NCBI GenBank assembly: GCA_910584305.1
Contig: CAJTZW010000001.1
Span: forward strand, 78,836 to 142,835
Reading direction: 5' to 3'
DNA: 64,000 bases
From: an uncultured Bacilli bacterium
GTDB taxonomy: Bacteria > Bacillota_I > Bacilli_A > RF39 > UBA660
Shown: positions 43,292-52,693 of the stretch, in pieces
Numbering within the stretch: the stretch's first letter is position 1
How the letters are laid out: every line of letters starts with the position of its first letter
Program-made: the position numbers and the translations under genes
The notes under the pieces: model-generated
Seen by the model: only the letters and a program-made list of their open reading frames with translations
What the model was told of the DNA's origin: nothing
The model's database searches: none

Positions 43292-44851
43292 ATGCAAACA
43301 AGAAAAATGTATGAAAGAATAAGCTGGTATAAAAAGGAATATGTACATGAACAGTATTCTAGAATAGTTGAACATTTTAAAGATTATGATAAAATCACAA
43401 AAAAGAAAATGTTAGAAAATATATATAAAGTCTATAATGATTTTAATAATATTATAGATATTTGTACTACTAGAGAATTAAAGTATTTAAAAATGTTACT
43501 TGATAAAAGGAACAATCTGAAAGATTTATTAGATGATAAATATGAATGGGAAAGAAAGTTACTTAGAAATAAATTTTTAGTTCAAGATGATTATGATCAG
43601 GTGTTTATACCAGATGAGATAATTGATAAGGTAGAAATTGCGATAAAAAATGTTAATTGGAATATAACGAAAAAATTAGATGATTTAAATGAAATATTAG
43701 TAAGTTATTGTAAAATACAGGCATCAGCACTGCTTAATAGTGTTTGTTCTTTTGCATCAGGTATAACAGGCATAAATGAAAATTTAATTTGGAATCATAT
43801 GTTAAACAATAAATTATTTAATTATTATGTGTTAGTCTATACTAAAGATTTTGGAACGATTGGAAATGACATACCTGTTGCCTTATATCAAGATTATTAC
43901 TATATTGAAGAAGCGCTAGAAGAAGAAAGAAAAAAACAAGGTCTAGCAGGATCTCTACCAATAGATTTAAGAATTTATAAGACACTATTTTATAATGATT
44001 TTGATATTAATAATAAAAAAATAAAAAAGTTTTTGGATGAAATAAAAAAGCTACCATTTTTCTGGTTTTCGGCACTTGATGGTATTAGAGAATTTGCAGT
44101 ATTAAATATAGATAGGGCTCCTTTAAAGAAATCAATTGAAAGTGTTCCGGCTTTAAAAGATTATGATTTAACAGAGTTTTTTAAGATATTAGATGAAGCT
44201 ATGGATGAGATGCCTTCTGGGGCATTAAATGGATTTACTCCAAATCAGGCAAAACAATTAAAGATAGAAACAGAAAGACTTAAATATGAAAAGGGAAAAA
44301 AGTATACTGAACAACAAAACGCTTGTTTATCTAGAACGGATGCAAAACTCTTTTATAAAATCTATTTTGGGTTATTAGAATTTACTAACAACAAATATAA
44401 AATTAATACAAAATTAAAGGTATATAATAAATTAGGTATTAATCCTTATGAACTAAAAGATATAGTAGAAAAGTTTTGGGAAAATAAAGATGCTATTGTA
44501 CTAGAATTTTGCATGGGTAATCCATATAAATTTAATAAAGAAGAATTAAGTATTACTAGTGAATTTAAAAAAGGATTTAGAGATTTAGTAATAATTGCTA
44601 AATATGAAAAAGAATATACTGCCGTTATGAATAAAGATAAGACATATATGATTAAGGGATTAAATGATAATATAGATAATATTATTTCTTATCAAAAATT
44701 ACCTCAACCTGTAATGACATCTATTATTCCATTTAAAAATGTTTTAATTTATGATGGATTATTAATGGAATTAGGTATAAAGATGGGAAATGGTTTTGAG
44801 AAAGTGGTTTTAGAAGAATATTCTAAATCAATGAAATATTATCACTTATAA
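43292..44851 (+). CDS. hypothetical protein, 519 aa, no recognisable family
   Basis: A long ORF with an RBS (GTGAGG). It lies inside the defense-cargo region of the element. Confidence 0.5.
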   Translation: MQTRKMYERISWYKKEYVHEQYSRIVEHFKDYDKITKKKMLENIYKVYNDFNNIIDICTTRELKYLKMLLDKRNNLKDLLDDKYEWERKLLRNKFLVQDDYDQVFIPDEIIDKVEIAIKNVNWNITKKLDDLNEILVSYCKIQASALLNSVCSFASGITGINENLIWNHMLNNKLFNYYVLVYTKDFGTIGNDIPVALYQDYYYIEEALEEERKKQGLAGSLPIDLRIYKTLFYNDFDINNKKIKKFLDEIKKLPFFWFSALDGIREFAVLNIDRAPLKKSIESVPALKDYDLTEFFKILDEAMDEMPSGALNGFTPNQAKQLKIETERLKYEKGKKYTEQQNACLSRTDAKLFYKIYFGLLEFTNNKYKINTKLKVYNKLGINPYELKDIVEKFWENKDAIVLEFCMGNPYKFNKEELSITSEFKKGFRDLVIIAKYEKEYTAVMNKDKTYMIKGLNDNIDNIISYQKLPQPVMTSIIPFKNVLIYDGLLMELGIKMGNGFEKVVLEEYSKSMKYYHL

Positions 44852-44888
44852 TTCCATATGGAATATGTGATTCTAAAAGGCGGAAGGT

Positions 44889-44926
44889 TTCGTTACCATT
44901 GTTAGATTTAATTGGGTATTTAGGCA
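44889..44926 (+). repeat. 38-bp near-perfect direct copy (37/38) of the element's left-end sequence at 40887-40924
   Basis: GGTTTCGTTACCATTGTTAGATTTAATTGGGTATTTAG here against GGTTTAGTTACCATTGTTAGATTTAATTGGGTATTTAG there. The upstream bases even re-encode a GGRFRYHC* tail like the GGRGFSYHC* at the first junction. Confidence 0.8.
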
Positions 44927-45081
44927 ATCATATGTGAATTAAATAAAATGTACGATTAATCAAAAAAAATATTTTGAGGACAAGAATAGTCCTAAGATTA
45001 GATTTAAAGCACAAATTATCTGAAAATACTAAGAGAATATCTGAAAATGCTATAATTATAAGCAGTTAGGAGGTCTAAATT

Positions 45082-45930
45082 ATGAGTGAAAAAGAATTGG
45101 ATTCAAGCGTTAATAAATATGAAGAAGAATACAAACCTAATAACTATGTTAAACAATTACAATGGGATATGGCTATTGGACTTCAAGAAGTAGATAATTT
45201 AAAACCTTCTAAATATCTTAAAAAACTATTAGAAGAAAATGTCACTGGTGAGATGACTATAGAAGAAGTAGAAAAAGAGTTGAGAGAATATTATATTGAA
45301 AAGGAAAATAAAAATGAACTTAATCATAATGAACTAGAGTGTGATTTTGTATCTACCAGAATAGTTGAATTATTACAAGAGAATAAGTTTGAATTATCAG
45401 TAGATTATTTAAAATATGTTCATAAATATTTATTTCAAGATGTTTATGAATTTGCTGGTGAATTTAGAAAAATAGATTTTTCTAAACATGAGAAAATATT
45501 AAATAATGATTCAGTAGCTTATGGTGATTGTAATACCTTAACTGAATCATTAGAATATGATATATCTTTAGAAAAAGGAAAAAATTATAAAGAAATGAAT
45601 ATGGTTGGAGTTATTAACAATATTACTAAATTCTCATCTAGTATATGGCAAGTACATCCATTTAGAGAAGGTAATACTAGAACAACAGCTTTATTTATTG
45701 AAAAATATTTAATTAATTTAGGCTATAGTGTAGATAATAATTTATTTAAAGATAAATCAGTGTATTTTAGAAACGCATTAGTAAGAAGTAATTACTTTAA
45801 TAATTATTTAAATATAAAAGAAGATAGTAGTTATTTAGTTAAATTCTATGAAAACTTGTTATTAGGTAAAAACAACAATTTACATTCACAAGATTTAATT
45901 GTTAAAGAATTATTTGATAAGGGAGATTAA
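45082..45930 (+). CDS. Fic/DOC-family protein with a divergent active-site motif
   Basis: It has HPFREGNTRTT where the canonical Fic motif is HPFx(D/E)GNGRxxR. Confidence 0.6.
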   Translation: MSEKELDSSVNKYEEEYKPNNYVKQLQWDMAIGLQEVDNLKPSKYLKKLLEENVTGEMTIEEVEKELREYYIEKENKNELNHNELECDFVSTRIVELLQENKFELSVDYLKYVHKYLFQDVYEFAGEFRKIDFSKHEKILNNDSVAYGDCNTLTESLEYDISLEKGKNYKEMNMVGVINNITKFSSSIWQVHPFREGNTRTTALFIEKYLINLGYSVDNNLFKDKSVYFRNALVRSNYFNNYLNIKEDSSYLVKFYENLLLGKNNNLHSQDLIVKELFDKGD

Positions 45931-46127: not shown

Positions 46128-47624
46128 ATGAATGATAATGAATTAAAGAGTATCGAAGATAAATTATGGGCTTCAGCGGATAAGATGAGAGGTGCTGTTT
46201 CAGTATCTGATTATAAGTTTATTGTTTTAGGTTTAATATTCTTAAAATATATATCTGACTCTTTTGAAGAAAGATATAAAGAATTAATCGAAGAAGGATA
46301 TGGCTTAGAAGAAGAGAAAGATAGCTATACTGAGAAGAATATCTTCTATGTTCCTAAAAATGCTAGATGGAGTTATCTTGTTGAGCATTCTAAAGATGAG
46401 AATATTGGGGAGGTTATTGATGATGCTCTTACTCTAATTGAAAAGGACAATTCATCACTTAGGAATGTTTTACCTAAAGACTATAATAGTCCTACTATGA
46501 GAAATGTTAACTTAGGAGAATTGATAGATTTATTTACTAATATTAAGGTGGGAACTAAAGATGCCATTGAAAAAGATATACTTGGAAGAATATATGAGTA
46601 TTTCTTAGGTCAGTTTGCTAAGAATGAGTTACAAAAAGGTGGAGAGTTCTATACACCTGCTTGTTTAGTTAGAACAATGGTTGAATGTATTGAACCATAC
46701 GAAGGCAGAGTTTATGATCCTGCATGTGGCTCTGGTGGTATGTTTATTCAATCATTGAAGTTTGTTCAAGAACATCAAGGAAATATTAATAATATTGGTA
46801 TTTATGGACAAGAGAAGAACCCTACTACTTGGAGACTTGCTAAGATGAATCTGGCTATTCGTTCTTTAAATGGTAATTTGGGTAAATATGCTGCTGATAC
46901 TTTTACTGAAGATTTGCATAAAGACTTGAAAGTTGACTTTGTTTTAGCTAATCCACCATTCAATTTGGAATGGGATGTTGATAAGGTTTCTAAGGATCCT
47001 AGATGGAGATATGGTTTAGCCCCAAAGAATAATGCTAACTATGCTTGGTTACAGCATATGATTTCTAAGTTATCACAAAATGGTAAGATGGCTTGTATTT
47101 TAGCTAATGGTTCTTTATCTGCTGGTGGACAAGAAGGAGAGATTAGAAAGAAACTGTTAGAGAATGATCTTGTTGATTGTATTCTATCAATGCCTTCTAA
47201 CCTATTCTATACGGTTACTGTTCCTTGTTCTATTTGGATTATTAATAGAAATAAGAAACAAAAAGGACATACTTTATTTATCAATGCTAGTAATATGGGA
47301 ACAATGGTTACTAGAAAATTAAGAGAACTATCTAAAGAAGATATACTTAAGATAGCTGATACTTATCATAGTTATCAAAACGATACTAATTATGAAGATG
47401 TATTAGGATATTGTAAGAAAGCTACATTAGAAGAAATTCAAGCAAATGACTGTGTATTGACTCCTGGTAGATATGTAGGAATAGAAGAACAAGAAGATGA
47501 TGGTGTTCCTTTTGAAGAGAAGATGGCAAGATTGACACGAGAACTATCTAAACAATTTGAAGAGTCTCATAAGTTAGAAGAAGAGATTAAGAAAAACTTG
47601 GGGGCTATTGGATATGGAATTTAA
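46128..47624 (+). CDS. hsdM: type I restriction-modification system methyltransferase subunit HsdM
   Basis: It has the N6-adenine MTase motif IV NPPF (LANPPFNL) and motif I VYDPACGSGGM. HsdS and HsdR follow. Confidence 0.9.
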   Translation: MNDNELKSIEDKLWASADKMRGAVSVSDYKFIVLGLIFLKYISDSFEERYKELIEEGYGLEEEKDSYTEKNIFYVPKNARWSYLVEHSKDENIGEVIDDALTLIEKDNSSLRNVLPKDYNSPTMRNVNLGELIDLFTNIKVGTKDAIEKDILGRIYEYFLGQFAKNELQKGGEFYTPACLVRTMVECIEPYEGRVYDPACGSGGMFIQSLKFVQEHQGNINNIGIYGQEKNPTTWRLAKMNLAIRSLNGNLGKYAADTFTEDLHKDLKVDFVLANPPFNLEWDVDKVSKDPRWRYGLAPKNNANYAWLQHMISKLSQNGKMACILANGSLSAGGQEGEIRKKLLENDLVDCILSMPSNLFYTVTVPCSIWIINRNKKQKGHTLFINASNMGTMVTRKLRELSKEDILKIADTYHSYQNDTNYEDVLGYCKKATLEEIQANDCVLTPGRYVGIEEQEDDGVPFEEKMARLTRELSKQFEESHKLEEEIKKNLGAIGYGI

Positions 47625-48777
47625 GAAAGCTAAGTTATATGAAATTGGTGAAGTTGTTGGAGGATCTACACCTTCAACAAAGAAACCAGAATACTATGAT
47701 GGTGATATGCCATGGATTACTCCTAAAGATTTAGCTGGATATACAAGTATGTACATTTCTAAGGGAGAAAGGAATATTACAAGAGAAGGATTTGATAGTT
47801 GCTCTACTAAAATGCTACCTAAGAATAGTATCTTGTTTTCATCAAGAGCCCCAATTGGATATGTTGCTATAGCAGAAAATGAATTATGCACAAATCAAGG
47901 TTTCAAATCAGTAATACCTAATAATGATATCGATTACTTATTTCTGTATTATTTGTTAAAGAATAATAAGGATTATATTGCATCTCTAGGTAGTGGTTCA
48001 ACGTTTAAGGAAGTATCTGGAAGTGTAATGAGGGATATTGAATTTGATATTCCAGTTAGTAGGGATGACCAAATTAAGATATCAAAAGTGCTATACTCTA
48101 TTGATTGTAAGATTGAATTGAATAATCAGATAAATAATAATTTGTTAGAGTTAGGGCAGCAATTATTATTACAAGATTTGAATGATGAGAAAAGCCAAAT
48201 ATATAAAATGGACGAAATATTTTATCATATATCTCCAGGTACCAATTATCAACCAGAAAGAGTATCTGAGGGTCTTCCTTTTCTAAATGTAAAAAATATA
48301 AATAATGGATATATCGATTGTAGTGACTCTAAATTTATATCTTTGGATGATTATAATAAAGTACATAAAACGTGGAAACCAGAGGAGAATGATTTGCTCA
48401 TTTCAAGAATTGGAACTTTAGGATTAGTTGCTGTAATACGAAAGGAAGATTTGCCATTAGCAGTACATTATAATTTTTTAGATTTGAAAACAAACAAGAT
48501 TCCTTTTGAATTTGGATACTTTCTTTTAAAATCAGATTATTTCCAACAAAAGTATAAGTTTAATATTAAAAATTCTGTTCAAGAGTACGTTACAGTAGAT
48601 GATATTAGAAAAATTGAAGTTAGAATACCTTGTGCTGATAGTTTAAAAAAGTATAAAACTATATATGATAAAATACTTAATATACAGAGGGAGAGCAGAA
48701 CATTAGAGCAACTACGAGATACACTACTACCAAAGTTAATGAATGGTGAAATAGACCTAGAAAACATAGAAATTTAG
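47608..48777 (+). CDS. hsdS: type I restriction-modification system specificity subunit HsdS
   Basis: Two target-recognition domains with conserved central and C-terminal coiled repeats. It overlaps the hsdM stop. Confidence 0.85.
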   Translation: MDMEFKKAKLYEIGEVVGGSTPSTKKPEYYDGDMPWITPKDLAGYTSMYISKGERNITREGFDSCSTKMLPKNSILFSSRAPIGYVAIAENELCTNQGFKSVIPNNDIDYLFLYYLLKNNKDYIASLGSGSTFKEVSGSVMRDIEFDIPVSRDDQIKISKVLYSIDCKIELNNQINNNLLELGQQLLLQDLNDEKSQIYKMDEIFYHISPGTNYQPERVSEGLPFLNVKNINNGYIDCSDSKFISLDDYNKVHKTWKPEENDLLISRIGTLGLVAVIRKEDLPLAVHYNFLDLKTNKIPFEFGYFLLKSDYFQQKYKFNIKNSVQEYVTVDDIRKIEVRIPCADSLKKYKTIYDKILNIQRESRTLEQLRDTLLPKLMNGEIDLENIEI

Positions 48778-48807
48778 TCATACAAATAGTTATTTATAGG
48801 AGAACAT

Positions 48808-49650
48808 ATGAATATTAATGATTATTCTTATAAGTTTAATGAAAATATAAATAGGATTTCTAAATCAGATGCTAAAAACATAGTTGATTTAACAATAAAA
48901 AATTATGCGATATATAATTCTTATTTTGTTGAATTGCAAGAAATGCTATCAACTGATGGTAATAAATTGAATATTAAATTAAATGCTTTAAATTTTCTTT
49001 CAATGCACTCAACTTTTATGTTTAATAGTTTTATAAATGATCTAATTTCTAATAATTATTTTTCCACCAAAATCAATTTAAGAGTCATCATTGAATTTTA
49101 CTTTAAATATTTATTTTTGTTATATAGTGATGATTATGTATCAGAATTATATTTAAATTTTAATGATATTTATTTATATAACTTATCTATGAAGTTTAGT
49201 AATATATTAAAAATGAAAAAAAACGAACAAGCAAAATTAAAAAGTAACTATGAAAAAATAATAAAAAAATATAATTTAAGTAATAATGTAAAAGAAGATT
49301 ATTGGGTTAAATTAGCTCTTGAACATAATACCGGAAACAAGAATAATAAAAGTATTCAAAGTATTATAGGATGGTTAAAAGATAATAAAATGATTGAAGA
49401 CGCGATTATTATTTCATATGAGGATAATTGTGATTATAATCATTGTGGAATAGGGTCACTTAATTATCAACAATTAATTGCTTTATATGATTCTCAGAAT
49501 AAGTTTTATGATATGTATCAACCTATATTGAGTGAATTTAATTATATATTATTCAATATTGTCAATAAATTTATGAAAAAATATAAAGAATATTCCAATC
49601 AAGAAGTTATTGAGGTTATGTTAAATAATATGAATGATATTTTAAAATAA
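48808..49650 (+). CDS. hypothetical protein (280 aa) embedded between hsdS and hsdR
   Basis: An ORF with an RBS (AGGAGAA). It is AT-rich and Asn/Tyr-rich, and no family was recognised. Confidence 0.45.
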   Translation: MNINDYSYKFNENINRISKSDAKNIVDLTIKNYAIYNSYFVELQEMLSTDGNKLNIKLNALNFLSMHSTFMFNSFINDLISNNYFSTKINLRVIIEFYFKYLFLLYSDDYVSELYLNFNDIYLYNLSMKFSNILKMKKNEQAKLKSNYEKIIKKYNLSNNVKEDYWVKLALEHNTGNKNNKSIQSIIGWLKDNKMIEDAIIISYEDNCDYNHCGIGSLNYQQLIALYDSQNKFYDMYQPILSEFNYILFNIVNKFMKKYKEYSNQEVIEVMLNNMNDILK

Positions 49651-49654
49651 GGAA

Positions 49655-52600
49655 GTGATAACAATGTTCAATGAAGAACAATTAGAAGATATGACAATGT
49701 CGTTACTACACGACTTAGGTTATGATTGTAAAAATGGATATGATATTGAAAGAGATTATCATAGTGTTTTTAATGAAGATAGCTTATTTGATGATCTAGC
49801 TAATATCAATAGAGATTTTACTGATGATCAGATTAATGAAGCTATTCGCATTATTAAGAATCTTAATCAAAGTAATGTAGTTGAAGATAATAAGGAATTT
49901 ACCAAATATTTATTACAAGGTGTTCCTGTAGAGGTTAAGACTAGCTCAGGTTATGTATTCAAGAATGTTAAGTTGATTGATTTTGATAATATAGATAATA
50001 ATCACTTCCAAGCTATTAATCAATTTACTATAGTTGAATTTGAACAAAAAAGACCTGATATAATTATTTTTGTTAATAGTATTCCTTTAGTAGTTATTGA
50101 GTTGAAGACTGCTACTAATGAAGATGTTAAGTTAGAAGATGGGTATCTTCAATTACACAAGTATAGAGAAATCTCTATACCTACACTATTTAGATATAAT
50201 CAGTTCCTAATTGTTAGTGACGGTGTTACTGCTAAGGCAGGAACTATTACTAGTCCATGGAGTAGATTTAGTGATTGGAAGAAGATAGAGGATACTGATT
50301 TAGTTACTGAGAATATGCCAACGCATGAAACACTGTTCAAAGGAATGCTAAGAAAAGATAGATTGTTAGATTTAATTGGTAATTATGTTCTTTATAGTAG
50401 TGATTCAAAGATACTTGCCGGATATCATCAATATTTTGGGGTTAAGAAAGCAATTACTTCAACTGTTACTAATGGTGCTAAAACTGGTAAAGCTGGAATA
50501 CTTTGGCATACTCAAGGATCTGGCAAATCTTTCTCTATGGTATTCTATACTGGTAATATGATTAGGATACTATCTAATCCTACCATTGTCGTTGTTACTG
50601 ATAGAAATGATTTAGATAATCAATTATATGAGACTTTCTATAAATGTTCTGATTATTTGAAGCAAAAGCCAGTACAAGCTGATAATCGAGGCGATTTAAA
50701 AGAACTACTTAAGGATAGAGTTGCTGGCGGAATATTCTTTACTACGCTACAAAAGTTTGAAGAAGAATCGGGTTTATTCTCCGATAGAGATGATATTTTA
50801 GTTTTAGTTGATGAAGCCCATAGAAGTCATTATGGTCTAGAGGCATCAATGAAACTTAATTTAGAAACTATGGAAGCTTATAAAAAATATGGAACTGCTA
50901 AATATTTACATGATGCACTTCCTAATGCTATCTATATAGGATTTACAGGAACACCTGTAGAGACTAAAGATAGATCAACTTCTTCTATATTTGGAGATGT
51001 CATTGATACTTATGATATGACGCAAGCTATACTTGATGGGGCTACTGTTCCGATTATGTATGAATCAAGAATGGCTAGAGTTGGACTTAATCAGAAGATA
51101 CTTGATGAGATTGATAATTATTATAAGTTTGTTGAAGAGTCAGGAGTAGCTGATGATTCAGCAATTAACAAATCTAAACAAATGATGGCTCGTATTTCAC
51201 AAGTTATAGAGGATCCTGATAGATTAGAGTTGATTGTTAAAGATATTATTAATCATTATGGAGAACGAAAGAATATGACAGCTAATCGTGCTATGGTTGT
51301 TGCTTATTCTAGAAAGAGTGCTTATACGATGTATAAGAAGTTCTTAGAGTTACGACCTGATTATGAGGATGTTGTTAATATGATTATTACACCTAGTAAT
51401 AAAGATTCTGAAGAGATGCAACACGCTATAGGTACTAAGAGTGATAAGAAAGAACTTGAAAGAAAATTTAAGAGTGAGGATTCTAATGAGAAGTTTAGAA
51501 TTGCCATTGTCGTAGATATGTGGCTTACTGGATTTGATGTTCCTTCACTTGGTACGATGTATATTGATAAGCCTATGAAAGCCCATAACCTAATGCAAGC
51601 TATTGCAAGGGTTAATCGTGTTTATAAAGATAAGACTGGTGGTCTTATAGTAGATTATATTGGATTAAAAGGTTGGTTATTAGATGCACTTAAAACTTAT
51701 ACGACAAGGGATCAAAATAAGATTGTTGATAATGAGGAATTAGTTAATGCTTTACTCGATAAGTTAGAAGTTATTGATAACATGTTTAATGGTTTTGATT
51801 ATTCTAATTTTAAAGGGTTAGATAATACTGGTAAGTATGGATTAATTAGAGATGCTGCTAATATAATGTTATCTTCTGAAGATTCAAAAAGAAGATATAT
51901 GAAGCATAGCCAAGATGTTAAGAATCTATATACTTTATGTAATGGTATATTAAATGATTCTGTTAAGGATAAGTGTTTGTTTATTATTTCAGTTAAGTCA
52001 TTTATTTCTAAGATTACTAATACTGGTAAGTTGGATGTTACAGAGATTAATTCTACTGTTGGTAGAATGCTAGAAGAATCAATTATTGAAGATGAACTAA
52101 TTAATCTTGGGGAATTAACAAGAGGTAACAGTTTAGAATTGCTTAGTGATACTATGTTAAGTAAGTTAAGAACTATGAAAGATAAGAATGTTGTGGCCGA
52201 AGTATTATCAAGAGCTCTTAGGACTACTATTAGTGATATTGGAAAGATGAATTTAACATTGCAAGAAAAATTTTCTACTAAGTTTAACAAGATAGTTGAT
52301 ATGTATAATGAGAGAACAGATCTTGCTGATATTGAGAAGATTATTGAAGAAATGATTATGCTTAAGAAGGAAATTGAAGAAGAATTTGCTAGCGGTAATG
52401 AGTATGATTTATCCCCTGAAGAGAAAGCTTTCTTTGATGCTTTGGGTGCTGATCCTGAGATTAAGGAGTTAATGCAAGATGATACATTGGTTCGGATTGC
52501 TAAGGAATTAGTTGAGTTGATTAATGAAAATCTTACATTGGATGCATTTAAGAGGGAGGATGCTAGAGCAAGAATAAGAAGTAATATTAGAAGATTGCTT

Positions 52601-52693
52601 ATTAAGTATAACTATCCACCAATTAAACGTGAAGGTGCTGTAGATAAAGTTATTAAGCAAGCCGAACTTAAATATCAGAATTCAGAGATGTAG
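49655..52693 (+). CDS. hsdR: type I restriction-modification system endonuclease/helicase subunit HsdR
   Basis: It has an N-terminal nuclease region, helicase motifs (Walker A GSGKS, DEAH as VDEAHRS) and a C-terminal domain. It is 1012 aa long. Confidence 0.9.
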   Translation: MITMFNEEQLEDMTMSLLHDLGYDCKNGYDIERDYHSVFNEDSLFDDLANINRDFTDDQINEAIRIIKNLNQSNVVEDNKEFTKYLLQGVPVEVKTSSGYVFKNVKLIDFDNIDNNHFQAINQFTIVEFEQKRPDIIIFVNSIPLVVIELKTATNEDVKLEDGYLQLHKYREISIPTLFRYNQFLIVSDGVTAKAGTITSPWSRFSDWKKIEDTDLVTENMPTHETLFKGMLRKDRLLDLIGNYVLYSSDSKILAGYHQYFGVKKAITSTVTNGAKTGKAGILWHTQGSGKSFSMVFYTGNMIRILSNPTIVVVTDRNDLDNQLYETFYKCSDYLKQKPVQADNRGDLKELLKDRVAGGIFFTTLQKFEEESGLFSDRDDILVLVDEAHRSHYGLEASMKLNLETMEAYKKYGTAKYLHDALPNAIYIGFTGTPVETKDRSTSSIFGDVIDTYDMTQAILDGATVPIMYESRMARVGLNQKILDEIDNYYKFVEESGVADDSAINKSKQMMARISQVIEDPDRLELIVKDIINHYGERKNMTANRAMVVAYSRKSAYTMYKKFLELRPDYEDVVNMIITPSNKDSEEMQHAIGTKSDKKELERKFKSEDSNEKFRIAIVVDMWLTGFDVPSLGTMYIDKPMKAHNLMQAIARVNRVYKDKTGGLIVDYIGLKGWLLDALKTYTTRDQNKIVDNEELVNALLDKLEVIDNMFNGFDYSNFKGLDNTGKYGLIRDAANIMLSSEDSKRRYMKHSQDVKNLYTLCNGILNDSVKDKCLFIISVKSFISKITNTGKLDVTEINSTVGRMLEESIIEDELINLGELTRGNSLELLSDTMLSKLRTMKDKNVVAEVLSRALRTTISDIGKMNLTLQEKFSTKFNKIVDMYNERTDLADIEKIIEEMIMLKKEIEEEFASGNEYDLSPEEKAFFDALGADPEIKELMQDDTLVRIAKELVELINENLTLDAFKREDARARIRSNIRRLLIKYNYPPIKREGAVDKVIKQAELKYQNSEM

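Follow-up and report, generated by a model that had tools for sequence, protein, structure and literature searches.

We examined a 64,000-nucleotide stretch of DNA from an uncultured Bacilli bacterium (assembly GCA_910584305.1, contig CAJTZW010000001.1, positions 78,836 to 142,835), hereafter the window, in which a type I restriction-modification (RM) operon carries an additional open reading frame (ORF), termed X, between the genes for its specificity and restriction subunits. The operon occupies positions 46128-52693 on a single (+) strand, with all ORFs uninterrupted; its genes, their translation signals and the conserved parts of X are as follows.

46128-47624 (+): hsdM, methyltransferase subunit of the type I RM system, 498 amino acids (Pfam N6_Mtase, 2.7e-112, and HsdM_N, 2.2e-26; PADLOC MTase_I, 8e-194)
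47614-48777 (+): hsdS, specificity subunit, 387 amino acids (Pfam Methylase_S, 2.5e-41, in two stretches)
48798-48803 (+): AGGAGA, Shine-Dalgarno-like element of X, 4 nt upstream of its ATG, read from the sequence
48808-49650 (+): X, 280 amino acids, a predicted soluble, all-helical, divergent DUF5677-like protein (ORF map, 37 homologues, substitution ratios, AlphaFold2 model, relatives matching PF18928)
49000-49482 (+): part of X corresponding to DUF5677, approximately residues 65-225 (hmmscan envelopes of relatives mapped through an alignment of the family)
49081-49107 (+): conserved residues R92-x3-E96-x3-K100, lining one side of helix 4 (17 of 18 family members)
49417-49443 (+): conserved residues Y204-x3-C208-x3-H212, lining one side of helix 10 (17 of 18 family members)
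49650-49655 (+): AGGAAG, ribosome-binding site of hsdR, 8 nt before the ATG at 49664 and overlapping the last base of the X stop codon
49664-52693 (+): hsdR, restriction and translocase subunit, 1009 amino acids (Pfam HSDR_N, SWI2_SNF2, ResIII, T1R_D3-like and T1RH-like_C; TIGR00348, 571 bits)

The system has the full complement of type I components: an intact HsdM (N6_Mtase with HsdM_N), an HsdS with two target-recognition domains, and an HsdR combining a nuclease N-terminus with a superfamily 2 translocase, for which the closest solved structure is that of the type IC enzyme EcoR124I (E = 2e-37). The gene order hsdM, hsdS, unassigned ORF, hsdR, originally predicted from the sequence alone, is thus borne out by ORF coordinates, common strand, and matches in Pfam, PADLOC and NCBIfam. 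The genes are tightly packed, as had been described: the 5' end of hsdS overlaps the 3' end of hsdM, 30 nt separate hsdS from X, X has its own ribosome-binding site, and 13 nt separate X from hsdR. No terminator-like sites were found between the four genes, and promoter-like sites within the operon (62, versus 56.7 +/- 7.2 in shuffled sequences) are not above chance. This spacing fits a single transcription unit in which X is translated just ahead of HsdR. Two start codons required revision. The hsdS gene, previously placed at the TTG at 47608 (389 amino acids), most likely begins at the ATG at 47614, giving the 387-residue product that gene callers chose in identical contigs. Similarly, hsdR most likely starts at the ATG at 49664 rather than the GTG at 49655; gene callers select this ATG, and the resulting N-terminus, MF[NT]EEQLE, is common to most of the homologous HsdR sequences compared. 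The interval between the X stop codon and hsdR is therefore 13 nt, not the 5 nt first reported.

X is a genuine gene, rather than a chance ORF. It has 37 full-length homologues at 46-74% identity, and purifying selection acts on it, the ratio of non-synonymous to synonymous substitution (dN/dS) being 0.12-0.14 in the unsaturated comparisons, those among the homologous loci L017, L018 and L019 (L017/L018, L017/L019 and L018/L019; dS below 0.6). The predicted protein is rich in Asn (15.0%) and Tyr (8.9%), confirming its initial description, with a grand average of hydropathy (GRAVY) of -0.39, a predicted isoelectric point (pI) of 6.8 and a net charge close to 0; the pI values of family members lie between 4.8 and 9.0. 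A membrane location was considered and discarded on the basis of the GRAVY value and inspection by eye, which revealed no long hydrophobic segment. The G+C content of X is 19%, and that of its third codon positions is 0.16, compared with 0.20-0.21 in the hsd genes. The very low overall value arises mainly at codon positions 1 and 2, from a composition rich in Asn, Ile, Lys, Leu and Tyr; the difference at third positions is about 2 standard errors, which is not decisive, and foreign origin was not adopted as an explanation of it. An AlphaFold2 model computed from a 15-sequence alignment is confident (mean pLDDT 90.3, pTM 0.88) and consists of 13 helices and no strand; the same 13-helix layout was obtained for P0044, a relative 28% identical to X (pLDDT 79).

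X itself matched nothing in Pfam, PADLOC (E <= 0.1), NCBIfam or PHROGs. To that extent the original prediction, which had recognised no counterpart of the protein, holds for X; it does not hold for the family, which its relatives link to DUF5677 (PF18928). Like its closest relatives, X has no match to the Pfam model of this domain, failing its gathering threshold of 27.1 bits and giving no match even at E <= 5. Five relatives at 23-46% identity to X pass the threshold, namely P0044 (41.1 bits), P0042 (31.0), P0038 (30.6), P0036 (29.3; 46% identical) and P0045 (28.0), and three others score 22-24 bits. In an alignment of 18 members (A2), seven match DUF5677 and no other family is recurrent. The envelopes of these matches in relatives (residues 65-225, 73-225, 77-212 and 86-219) cover profile positions 14-164 of 166. 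Conversely, a profile of the X family retrieves P0042 through P0045 at E-values of 1e-37 to 6e-23, and X aligns over its full length with the relatives that pass the threshold, with which it has common motifs and the same predicted helix layout. Since five diverged relatives meet the PF18928 threshold, and X is tied to them by transitive full-length alignment and a common predicted fold, X is on sequence criteria a divergent member of the uncharacterised DUF5677 family, differing in additional N- and C-terminal helices beyond the 166-position domain. DUF5677 has no assigned function, so this affiliation names X without explaining it.

Few proteins belong to the X family, a fast-diverging branch of DUF5677. 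Exhaustive searching of 1.84 billion representative proteins with a family profile yielded 16 clusters, indicating that the profile, like word-indexed homology searches, does not reach the bulk of DUF5677; the genomic contexts counted below accordingly cover relatives within the X family, the bulk of canonical DUF5677 genes lying outside the reach of the search. Among 185,579 species genomes the family occurred in one, a metagenome-assembled genome (MAG) of an uncultured Bacilli bacterium; a metagenome scan added two loci, and none was found in collections of viral contigs, phage records or plasmid records. The structural comparison envisaged in the original prediction found no counterpart of the confident X model: Foldseek searches with the X and P0044 models against PDB, and with the X model against BFVD, returned zero matches at E <= 0.001, the top rows, all short of this threshold, being generic helical bundles and G-protein-coupled receptors. 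A search of PDB sequences with the X profile likewise found nothing below an E-value of 0.8.

The earlier view that X lacks an obvious catalytic motif can be softened in one respect, in that two helix-face motifs are conserved in 17 of the 18 aligned members. In the first, R92-x3-[E/D]96-x3-K100, situated on a helix modelled at residues 84-106, K100 shows no variation in the family alignment and R92 is conserved to 90% or more. The second, Y204-x3-C208-x3-H212 (helix modelled at 198-211), is absent only from P0041, through a deletion. K154, Y155 and W166 are likewise invariant in the family. Beyond these conserved residues nothing points to an active or binding site, and their role could equally be structural.

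These features bear directly on the identity that the location of X would first suggest. Genes embedded in type I RM operons had been noted at the outset to be often auxiliary defence modules, with PrrC-like anticodon nucleases and Abi proteins as examples. The gene order of the prrC locus is hsdM-hsdS-prrC-hsdR, so that X occupies the prrC slot, and its all-helical fold, together with an Arg that precedes the conserved His by 5 residues in two of the 18 sequences (RNCDYNH in P0038, RYCGFTH in P0050), could be read as traces of an anticodon nuclease of the PrrC/RloC type, or of some other HEPN-type RNase, that has diverged beyond recognition. The sequences provide little room for this reading. 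No member of the 18 contains a Walker A motif (G-x4-GK[ST], or the looser [AG]-x4-GK), and no P-loop match occurs in Pfam; R-x4-6-H is present in only six of the 18, and not at equivalent alignment positions. No HEPN, PrrC or Abi model was matched in Pfam or PADLOC even at E <= 5, no PADLOC model recurs in the family, and Foldseek retrieved no HEPN structure from PDB with either model (E <= 0.001). PrrC is, moreover, a two-domain protein of about 400 amino acids, larger than the 280-residue X. With both the P-loop and the R-x4-6-H motif lacking, we consider a cryptic nuclease of this type very improbable, and the comparison of X with PrrC or known Abi proteins was not sustained.

The genomic neighbourhoods of relatives are more informative. 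All relatives at least 36% identical to X, where present on sufficiently long contigs, are embedded as hsdS-X-hsdR, and the complete order hsdM-hsdS-X-hsdR holds in nine loci with differing flanks, among which HsdR sequences are 62-91% and X sequences 36-87% identical to one another. Six contigs (L001-L006) represent the window's own island. L007-L011 are flanked by genes for an IS91-family transposase and a tyrosine integrase, L012 by a prophage-like region with a tyrosine integrase, and L014 and L015 combine an hsdS shufflon with GmrSD downstream. The order recurs in L017 (the Bacilli MAG) and L018; in L019 a serine recombinase, 63% identical to that downstream of hsdR in the window, lies upstream of the operon; and in L025-L027 X and HsdR are 36% and 62% identical, respectively, to those of the window. 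P0045, a member of the other deep clade only 23% identical to X, occupies the same position between hsdS and hsdR in L038-L040, in an operon whose HsdR is 44-47% identical to that of the window clade, a distance comparable to that of an X-less operon on a Mesobacillus plasmid (47%). P0050, 22% identical to X, is the first gene of an operon and overlaps the start of a type II restriction endonuclease (REase) gene by 11 nt; this operon (L034, 82-4474) comprises P0050, a gene for a 470-residue type II REase-like protein (PADLOC REase_II, 9e-24), an HTH_17/C5 DNA methyltransferase gene, and a gene with Mrr_cat/NERD domains.

In three unrelated RM lineages, therefore, a family member directly precedes the gene for a restriction nuclease. 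The co-occurrence with type I RM loci that had been proposed as a check on the embedding of X is evident in the nine hsdS-X-hsdR loci and in P0045 within an unrelated operon; X is present in every locus of the window's operon lineage that is long enough to judge, and no relative has a housekeeping annotation, so that neither of the two outcomes named at the outset as contrary to the prediction was observed. The new point, a modest one, is that DUF5677-like genes recur beside genes for restriction nucleases, in type I as well as type II systems. A second recurrent context places relatives next to genes for Flg_new surface proteins (P0044 at L020, 6576-8822; P0041 at L032, 921-3616), the P0044 cluster also containing a sortase, a SpaA protein, TrbL_4 and Imm51.

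Within the type I lineage, X diverges out of step with its partners. Identities to the window are 82-88% for HsdM, 62-88% for HsdR and 36-71% for X. L009 and L017 retain 89% identity in HsdM and 87% in HsdR with only 45% in X, while L017 and L018 are 87% identical in X and 81% in HsdR. This discordance does not resemble a uniform clock and is suggestive of X alleles having moved among related operon backbones, or of acceleration in particular lineages. Over eight lineages, it may also fit diversifying pressure on X better than a fixed pairing of X with a conserved HsdR surface. A mirror-tree correlation between X and HsdR (r = 0.71) owes its value to one outgroup and to pairs that are not independent, and was given no weight. 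X has been kept in the operon under purifying selection through saturating synonymous divergence. In L007 (9036-9176) and L010 (6690-6830), from two metagenome samples, hsdR is split by a common 1-bp deletion (GCTATT to GCATT, not in a homopolymer), recognised by comparison with L009 and L011 and located in the region of helicase motif VI.

The position of family members could reflect a role in controlling restriction, X binding or acting on the nuclease subunit (HsdR, or the REase in type II relatives) so as to delay or limit restriction until an incoming RM system has methylated the DNA of its recipient. Such a scheme would resemble that of C (controller) proteins or of restriction alleviation, executed by a different kind of protein. 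In its favour, family genes precede the nuclease gene and not the methylase gene in the three unrelated RM lineages; X is tightly coupled to the start of hsdR; and P0050, as first gene overlapping an REase gene, takes the usual position of a C gene, which is first in its operon and directly upstream of the REase gene. In addition, all of the operons lie in mobile contexts with recombinases or integrases, and relatives outside RM loci occur in clusters resembling conjugative elements, where control of restriction matters. The likeness to C proteins is positional only. C proteins are helix-turn-helix (HTH) proteins of roughly 80-100 amino acids, whereas X is a 280-residue helical protein; no HTH or other DNA-binding domain was detected in it with Pfam, and the single HTH match in the family (HTH_52 in one member, E = 0.11) is not recurrent, so that X was rejected as a C protein. 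An ArdA/Ocr-type DNA mimic was similarly discarded, the pI of 6.8, the near-zero charge and the non-conservation of charge in the family being at odds with it, and structural matches in PDB and BFVD being absent. Nor does X share similarity with an HsdR, HsdM or HsdS module through which it might compete during subunit assembly (hhalign probability <1%), which eliminated it as a paralogue or competitor of these subunits. X alleles that differ by 55% where HsdR differs by 13% are odd for a partner of a conserved HsdR, and related operons manage without X. On balance we regard a modulator of restriction as possible, although unlikely.

The hsdS-hsdR interval is itself a site of variable content. 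In the Mesobacillus plasmid operon, which lacks X, hsdS and hsdR overlap; in Clostridium estertheticum the interval contains a 67-residue ORF, with a PDDEXK gene between hsdM and hsdS; and in Lactococcus cremoris, which has a shufflon, it contains a DUF3800 gene. X is thus not required by the RM core, as these related operons do without it. In the lineage of P0036 (L009, 3891-4775, and also L007, L008, L010 and L011) the slot holds three genes: the X homologue, a DUF1413 gene (78 amino acids, 8.6e-20) and a 202-residue orphan without Pfam or PADLOC match. The 3' side of related hsdR genes is a further cargo site, with differing defence genes: a KAP NTPase in L038 (9189-10496; PDC-S20, 5e-47), GmrSD in L014 (11896-13716), and in L012 (13544-16590) a weak HEPN_Swt1-like match below the Pfam threshold, a Schlafen-group helicase and MazG.

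Published examples conform to this picture. The hsdS-hsdR junction has been described as a likely recombination hotspot for defence systems, with DarTG2 and a gene pair encoding an RNA-binding protein and an ATPase among its occupants (PMC12255303). A gene for RloF lies between hsdS and hsdR in Campylobacter, and TgvAB of Vibrio cholerae VPI-2 is embedded within a type I RM cluster (PMC11411939), while PrrC is embedded in a type IC locus, where it guards the RM system (PMC12707154). "Guilt by embedding" has been proposed as a principle for the discovery of defence genes, and over half of such embedded genes, in type I RM, BREX, DISARM and Hma loci, are without an assigned role (10.1101/2024.01.29.577857). 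The general premise of the original prediction, that genes within type I RM operons are often auxiliary defence modules, agrees with this published cargo (PrrC, DarTG2, the RloF gene).

Taking these observations together, we favour the view that X is a putative accessory immunity module produced alongside the restriction subunit, to which we assign a probability of about 0.5, covering jointly a guard and a stand-alone effector. X would be passenger cargo in the hsdS-hsdR insertion hotspot of a mobile type I RM operon, co-expressed with HsdR and adding a second layer to restriction. That layer might operate as a guard-type sensor and effector that acts once restriction is blocked or bypassed, as PrrC does, or as an effector in its own right that complements restriction, in the manner of DarTG2 or TgvAB. 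The wealth of defence genes around the operon is consistent with an immunity role, as is a report that lists DUF5677 as enriched near serine recombinases in defence contigs of Bacillota (PMC12632615). The R92/E96/K100 face of helix 4 and the Y204/C208/H212 face of helix 10 would be the candidate active or ligand-binding site.

Several observations weigh against an immunity role. About half of the independent contexts of the X family are not linked to RM: P0044 and P0041, which represent the two clades, come immediately after genes for Flg_new surface proteins, P0042 is preceded by a LicD/HAD/racemase cluster, and the short flanks of P0038 and P0039 contain no hsd fragments. The majority of the RM-embedded cases come from a single operon lineage (HsdM 82-88% identical), and plain inheritance could therefore account for much of the synteny. 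L007 and L010, natural restriction-negative variants with frameshifted hsdR, keep the X homologue P0036 intact; X is therefore tolerated without full-length HsdR, unlike a toxin strictly masked by it. No effector domain (nuclease, NTPase, TIR or HEPN) was found by Pfam, PADLOC, NCBIfam or PHROGs, and the fold of X has no match in PDB or BFVD at E <= 0.001. Finally, the single DUF5677 ORF expressed alone in Enterococcus faecalis was not among the five ORFs reported as protective against six phages (PMC12632615).

Some of these points would also suit a gene of mobile elements unrelated to restriction or phage defence, lodged in a permissive intergenic site and inherited with the operon, with a role in anti-defence, element maintenance or surface-related biology. 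The Flg_new-adjacent relatives in two clades and the relative beyond a LicD/teichoic-acid-type cluster would be explained, as would the lack of a reported defence phenotype for the DUF5677 ORF alone (PMC12632615), the absence of any PADLOC model matching X, and the acceptance of many unrelated genes by the slot. Such passive carriage accords poorly with the adjacency of the family to nuclease genes in three unrelated RM lineages, with purifying selection on X within the operon through saturating synonymous divergence, with the absence of the family from phage, viral-contig and plasmid collections, and with the fact that the characterised occupants of the hsdS-hsdR slot are defence systems; we judge it improbable.

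An accessory immunity module, the reading we prefer, can be set beside several known systems. PrrC of the EcoprrI type IC locus is, like X, the product of a single extra gene between hsdS and hsdR of a complete type I operon; it differs in having an ABC-ATPase/P-loop module and a HEPN motif, neither of which occurs in X, which is smaller, single-domain and without a PADLOC PrrC match. PrrC is, furthermore, "almost exclusively" RM-embedded (10.1101/2024.01.29.577857), in contrast to the X family, with about half of its contexts elsewhere. DarTG2 (from the RRDM island of enteropathogenic Escherichia coli), the RloF gene and candidates of the PDC series have the same hsdS-hsdR embedding as X, and TgvAB lies within its type I RM cluster in a broadly similar way; systems of the DarTG2 and RloF type have recognisable domains (DarT/DarG; DUF262/DUF1524 of GmrSD) and experimental phenotypes, whereas X has no such domains. 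X was not assignable to a PDC family, having no PADLOC match at E <= 0.1; among the 18 members at E <= 5 no PADLOC family recurred, three unrelated models matching one member each. The supplementary text of Payne et al. (10.1101/2024.01.29.577857), as far as examined, contains no mention of DUF5677. C proteins of type II systems are comparable in gene position, theirs too being placed immediately before the nuclease gene and either coupled to it or overlapping it. The embedded arrangement is thus already known; the protein found in it here is new to that position and lies outside PADLOC v2.

A bolder proposal, which we put forward as speculative and improbable, is that X and its DUF5677-like relatives constitute a new class of restriction-nuclease companions, acting as guards in type I and type II systems. 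A helical, Cys/His-containing protein would physically monitor, or be controlled by, the nuclease subunit, and inhibition of restriction would trigger a second-line response, by a fold and chemistry unlike those of PrrC or PARIS.

The operon with X is part of a chromosomal defence island extending from approximately 35.4 to 56 kb of the window. Housekeeping genes (SecY, RpoA, an ABC transporter) precede it up to about 35 kb, for which reason an integrative and conjugative element or conjugative transposon was rejected as the setting. The island also holds genes for HtrA, a 555-residue ORF product and a sortase; its other principal features are these.

35447-36379 (+): AbiD/Abi_2 (PADLOC, 7.6e-61)
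41183-42824 (+): AbiEi-like gene and AbiEii, with a DUF6429 gene (AbiEii, PADLOC, 6.6e-101)
43292-44851 (+): orphan ORF of 519 amino acids between the AbiE module and the Fic gene, 100% conserved in identical island copies
45082-45930 (+): Fic-domain gene directly upstream of hsdM (Pfam Fic, 2.4e-11; PADLOC PDC-S72, 1.3e-80)
53098-54759 (+): large serine recombinase downstream of hsdR (Pfam Resolvase, Recombinase, Zn_ribbon_recom)
54829-56049 (+): orphan ORF of 406 amino acids, 70 nt after the serine recombinase

The Fic gene is itself a defence candidate of the "guilt by embedding" type, and perhaps lies in one transcription block with the hsdM operon. The 519-residue ORF had no match in Pfam, PADLOC or NCBIfam and a marginal one in PHROGs (best E = 0.005). 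For the 406-residue ORF no convincing match was obtained in Pfam, PADLOC, NCBIfam or PHROGs (marginal E-values of 0.04-0.07); its C-terminal half contains, by eye, a D...LIEIK stretch that may be reminiscent of PD-(D/E)xK nucleases. Serine recombinases mark defence regions in Bacillota, a pattern into which this island fits, and co-transcription with a serine recombinase has been used to nominate defence genes, a pattern that the 406-residue ORF follows (PMC12632615).

Traces of assembly may be present in the island. A 60-nt intergenic direct repeat occurs at 40879-40938 and 44886-44945, the copies being 83% identical with a 23-nt identical core (ATTGTTAGATTTAATTGGGTATT); they lie upstream of the AbiEi-like gene and of the Fic gene, bracketing the 4-kb block from AbiE to the 519-residue ORF, and could represent a common operator or promoter, or a module junction. 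An Amidase_3 N-terminal motif is present twice, at 34773-34832 within a full ORF (34663-35328) and at 40631-40690 in a truncated copy, and this duplication may be a trace of the assembly of the left part of the island. Just to the right of the island, a tRNA-Trp gene (57810-57880, +; Rfam, 63 bits; ARAGORN) overlaps the 3' end of a minus-strand Hydrolase_2 ORF (57307-57855).

Embedded genes are considered a reservoir of undiscovered immunity functions (Payne et al., 10.1101/2024.01.29.577857), and the X family is a useful entry into it, offering a confident model without a solved relative, two motifs as targets for mutagenesis, and repeated adjacency to restriction-nuclease genes of two RM types. 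If X proved to have no measurable effect, it would represent one more uncharacterised passenger in a known hotspot. If it does sense or modulate restriction, DUF5677 would gain a function, and a new type of protein would join the few known guardians and regulators of RM systems.

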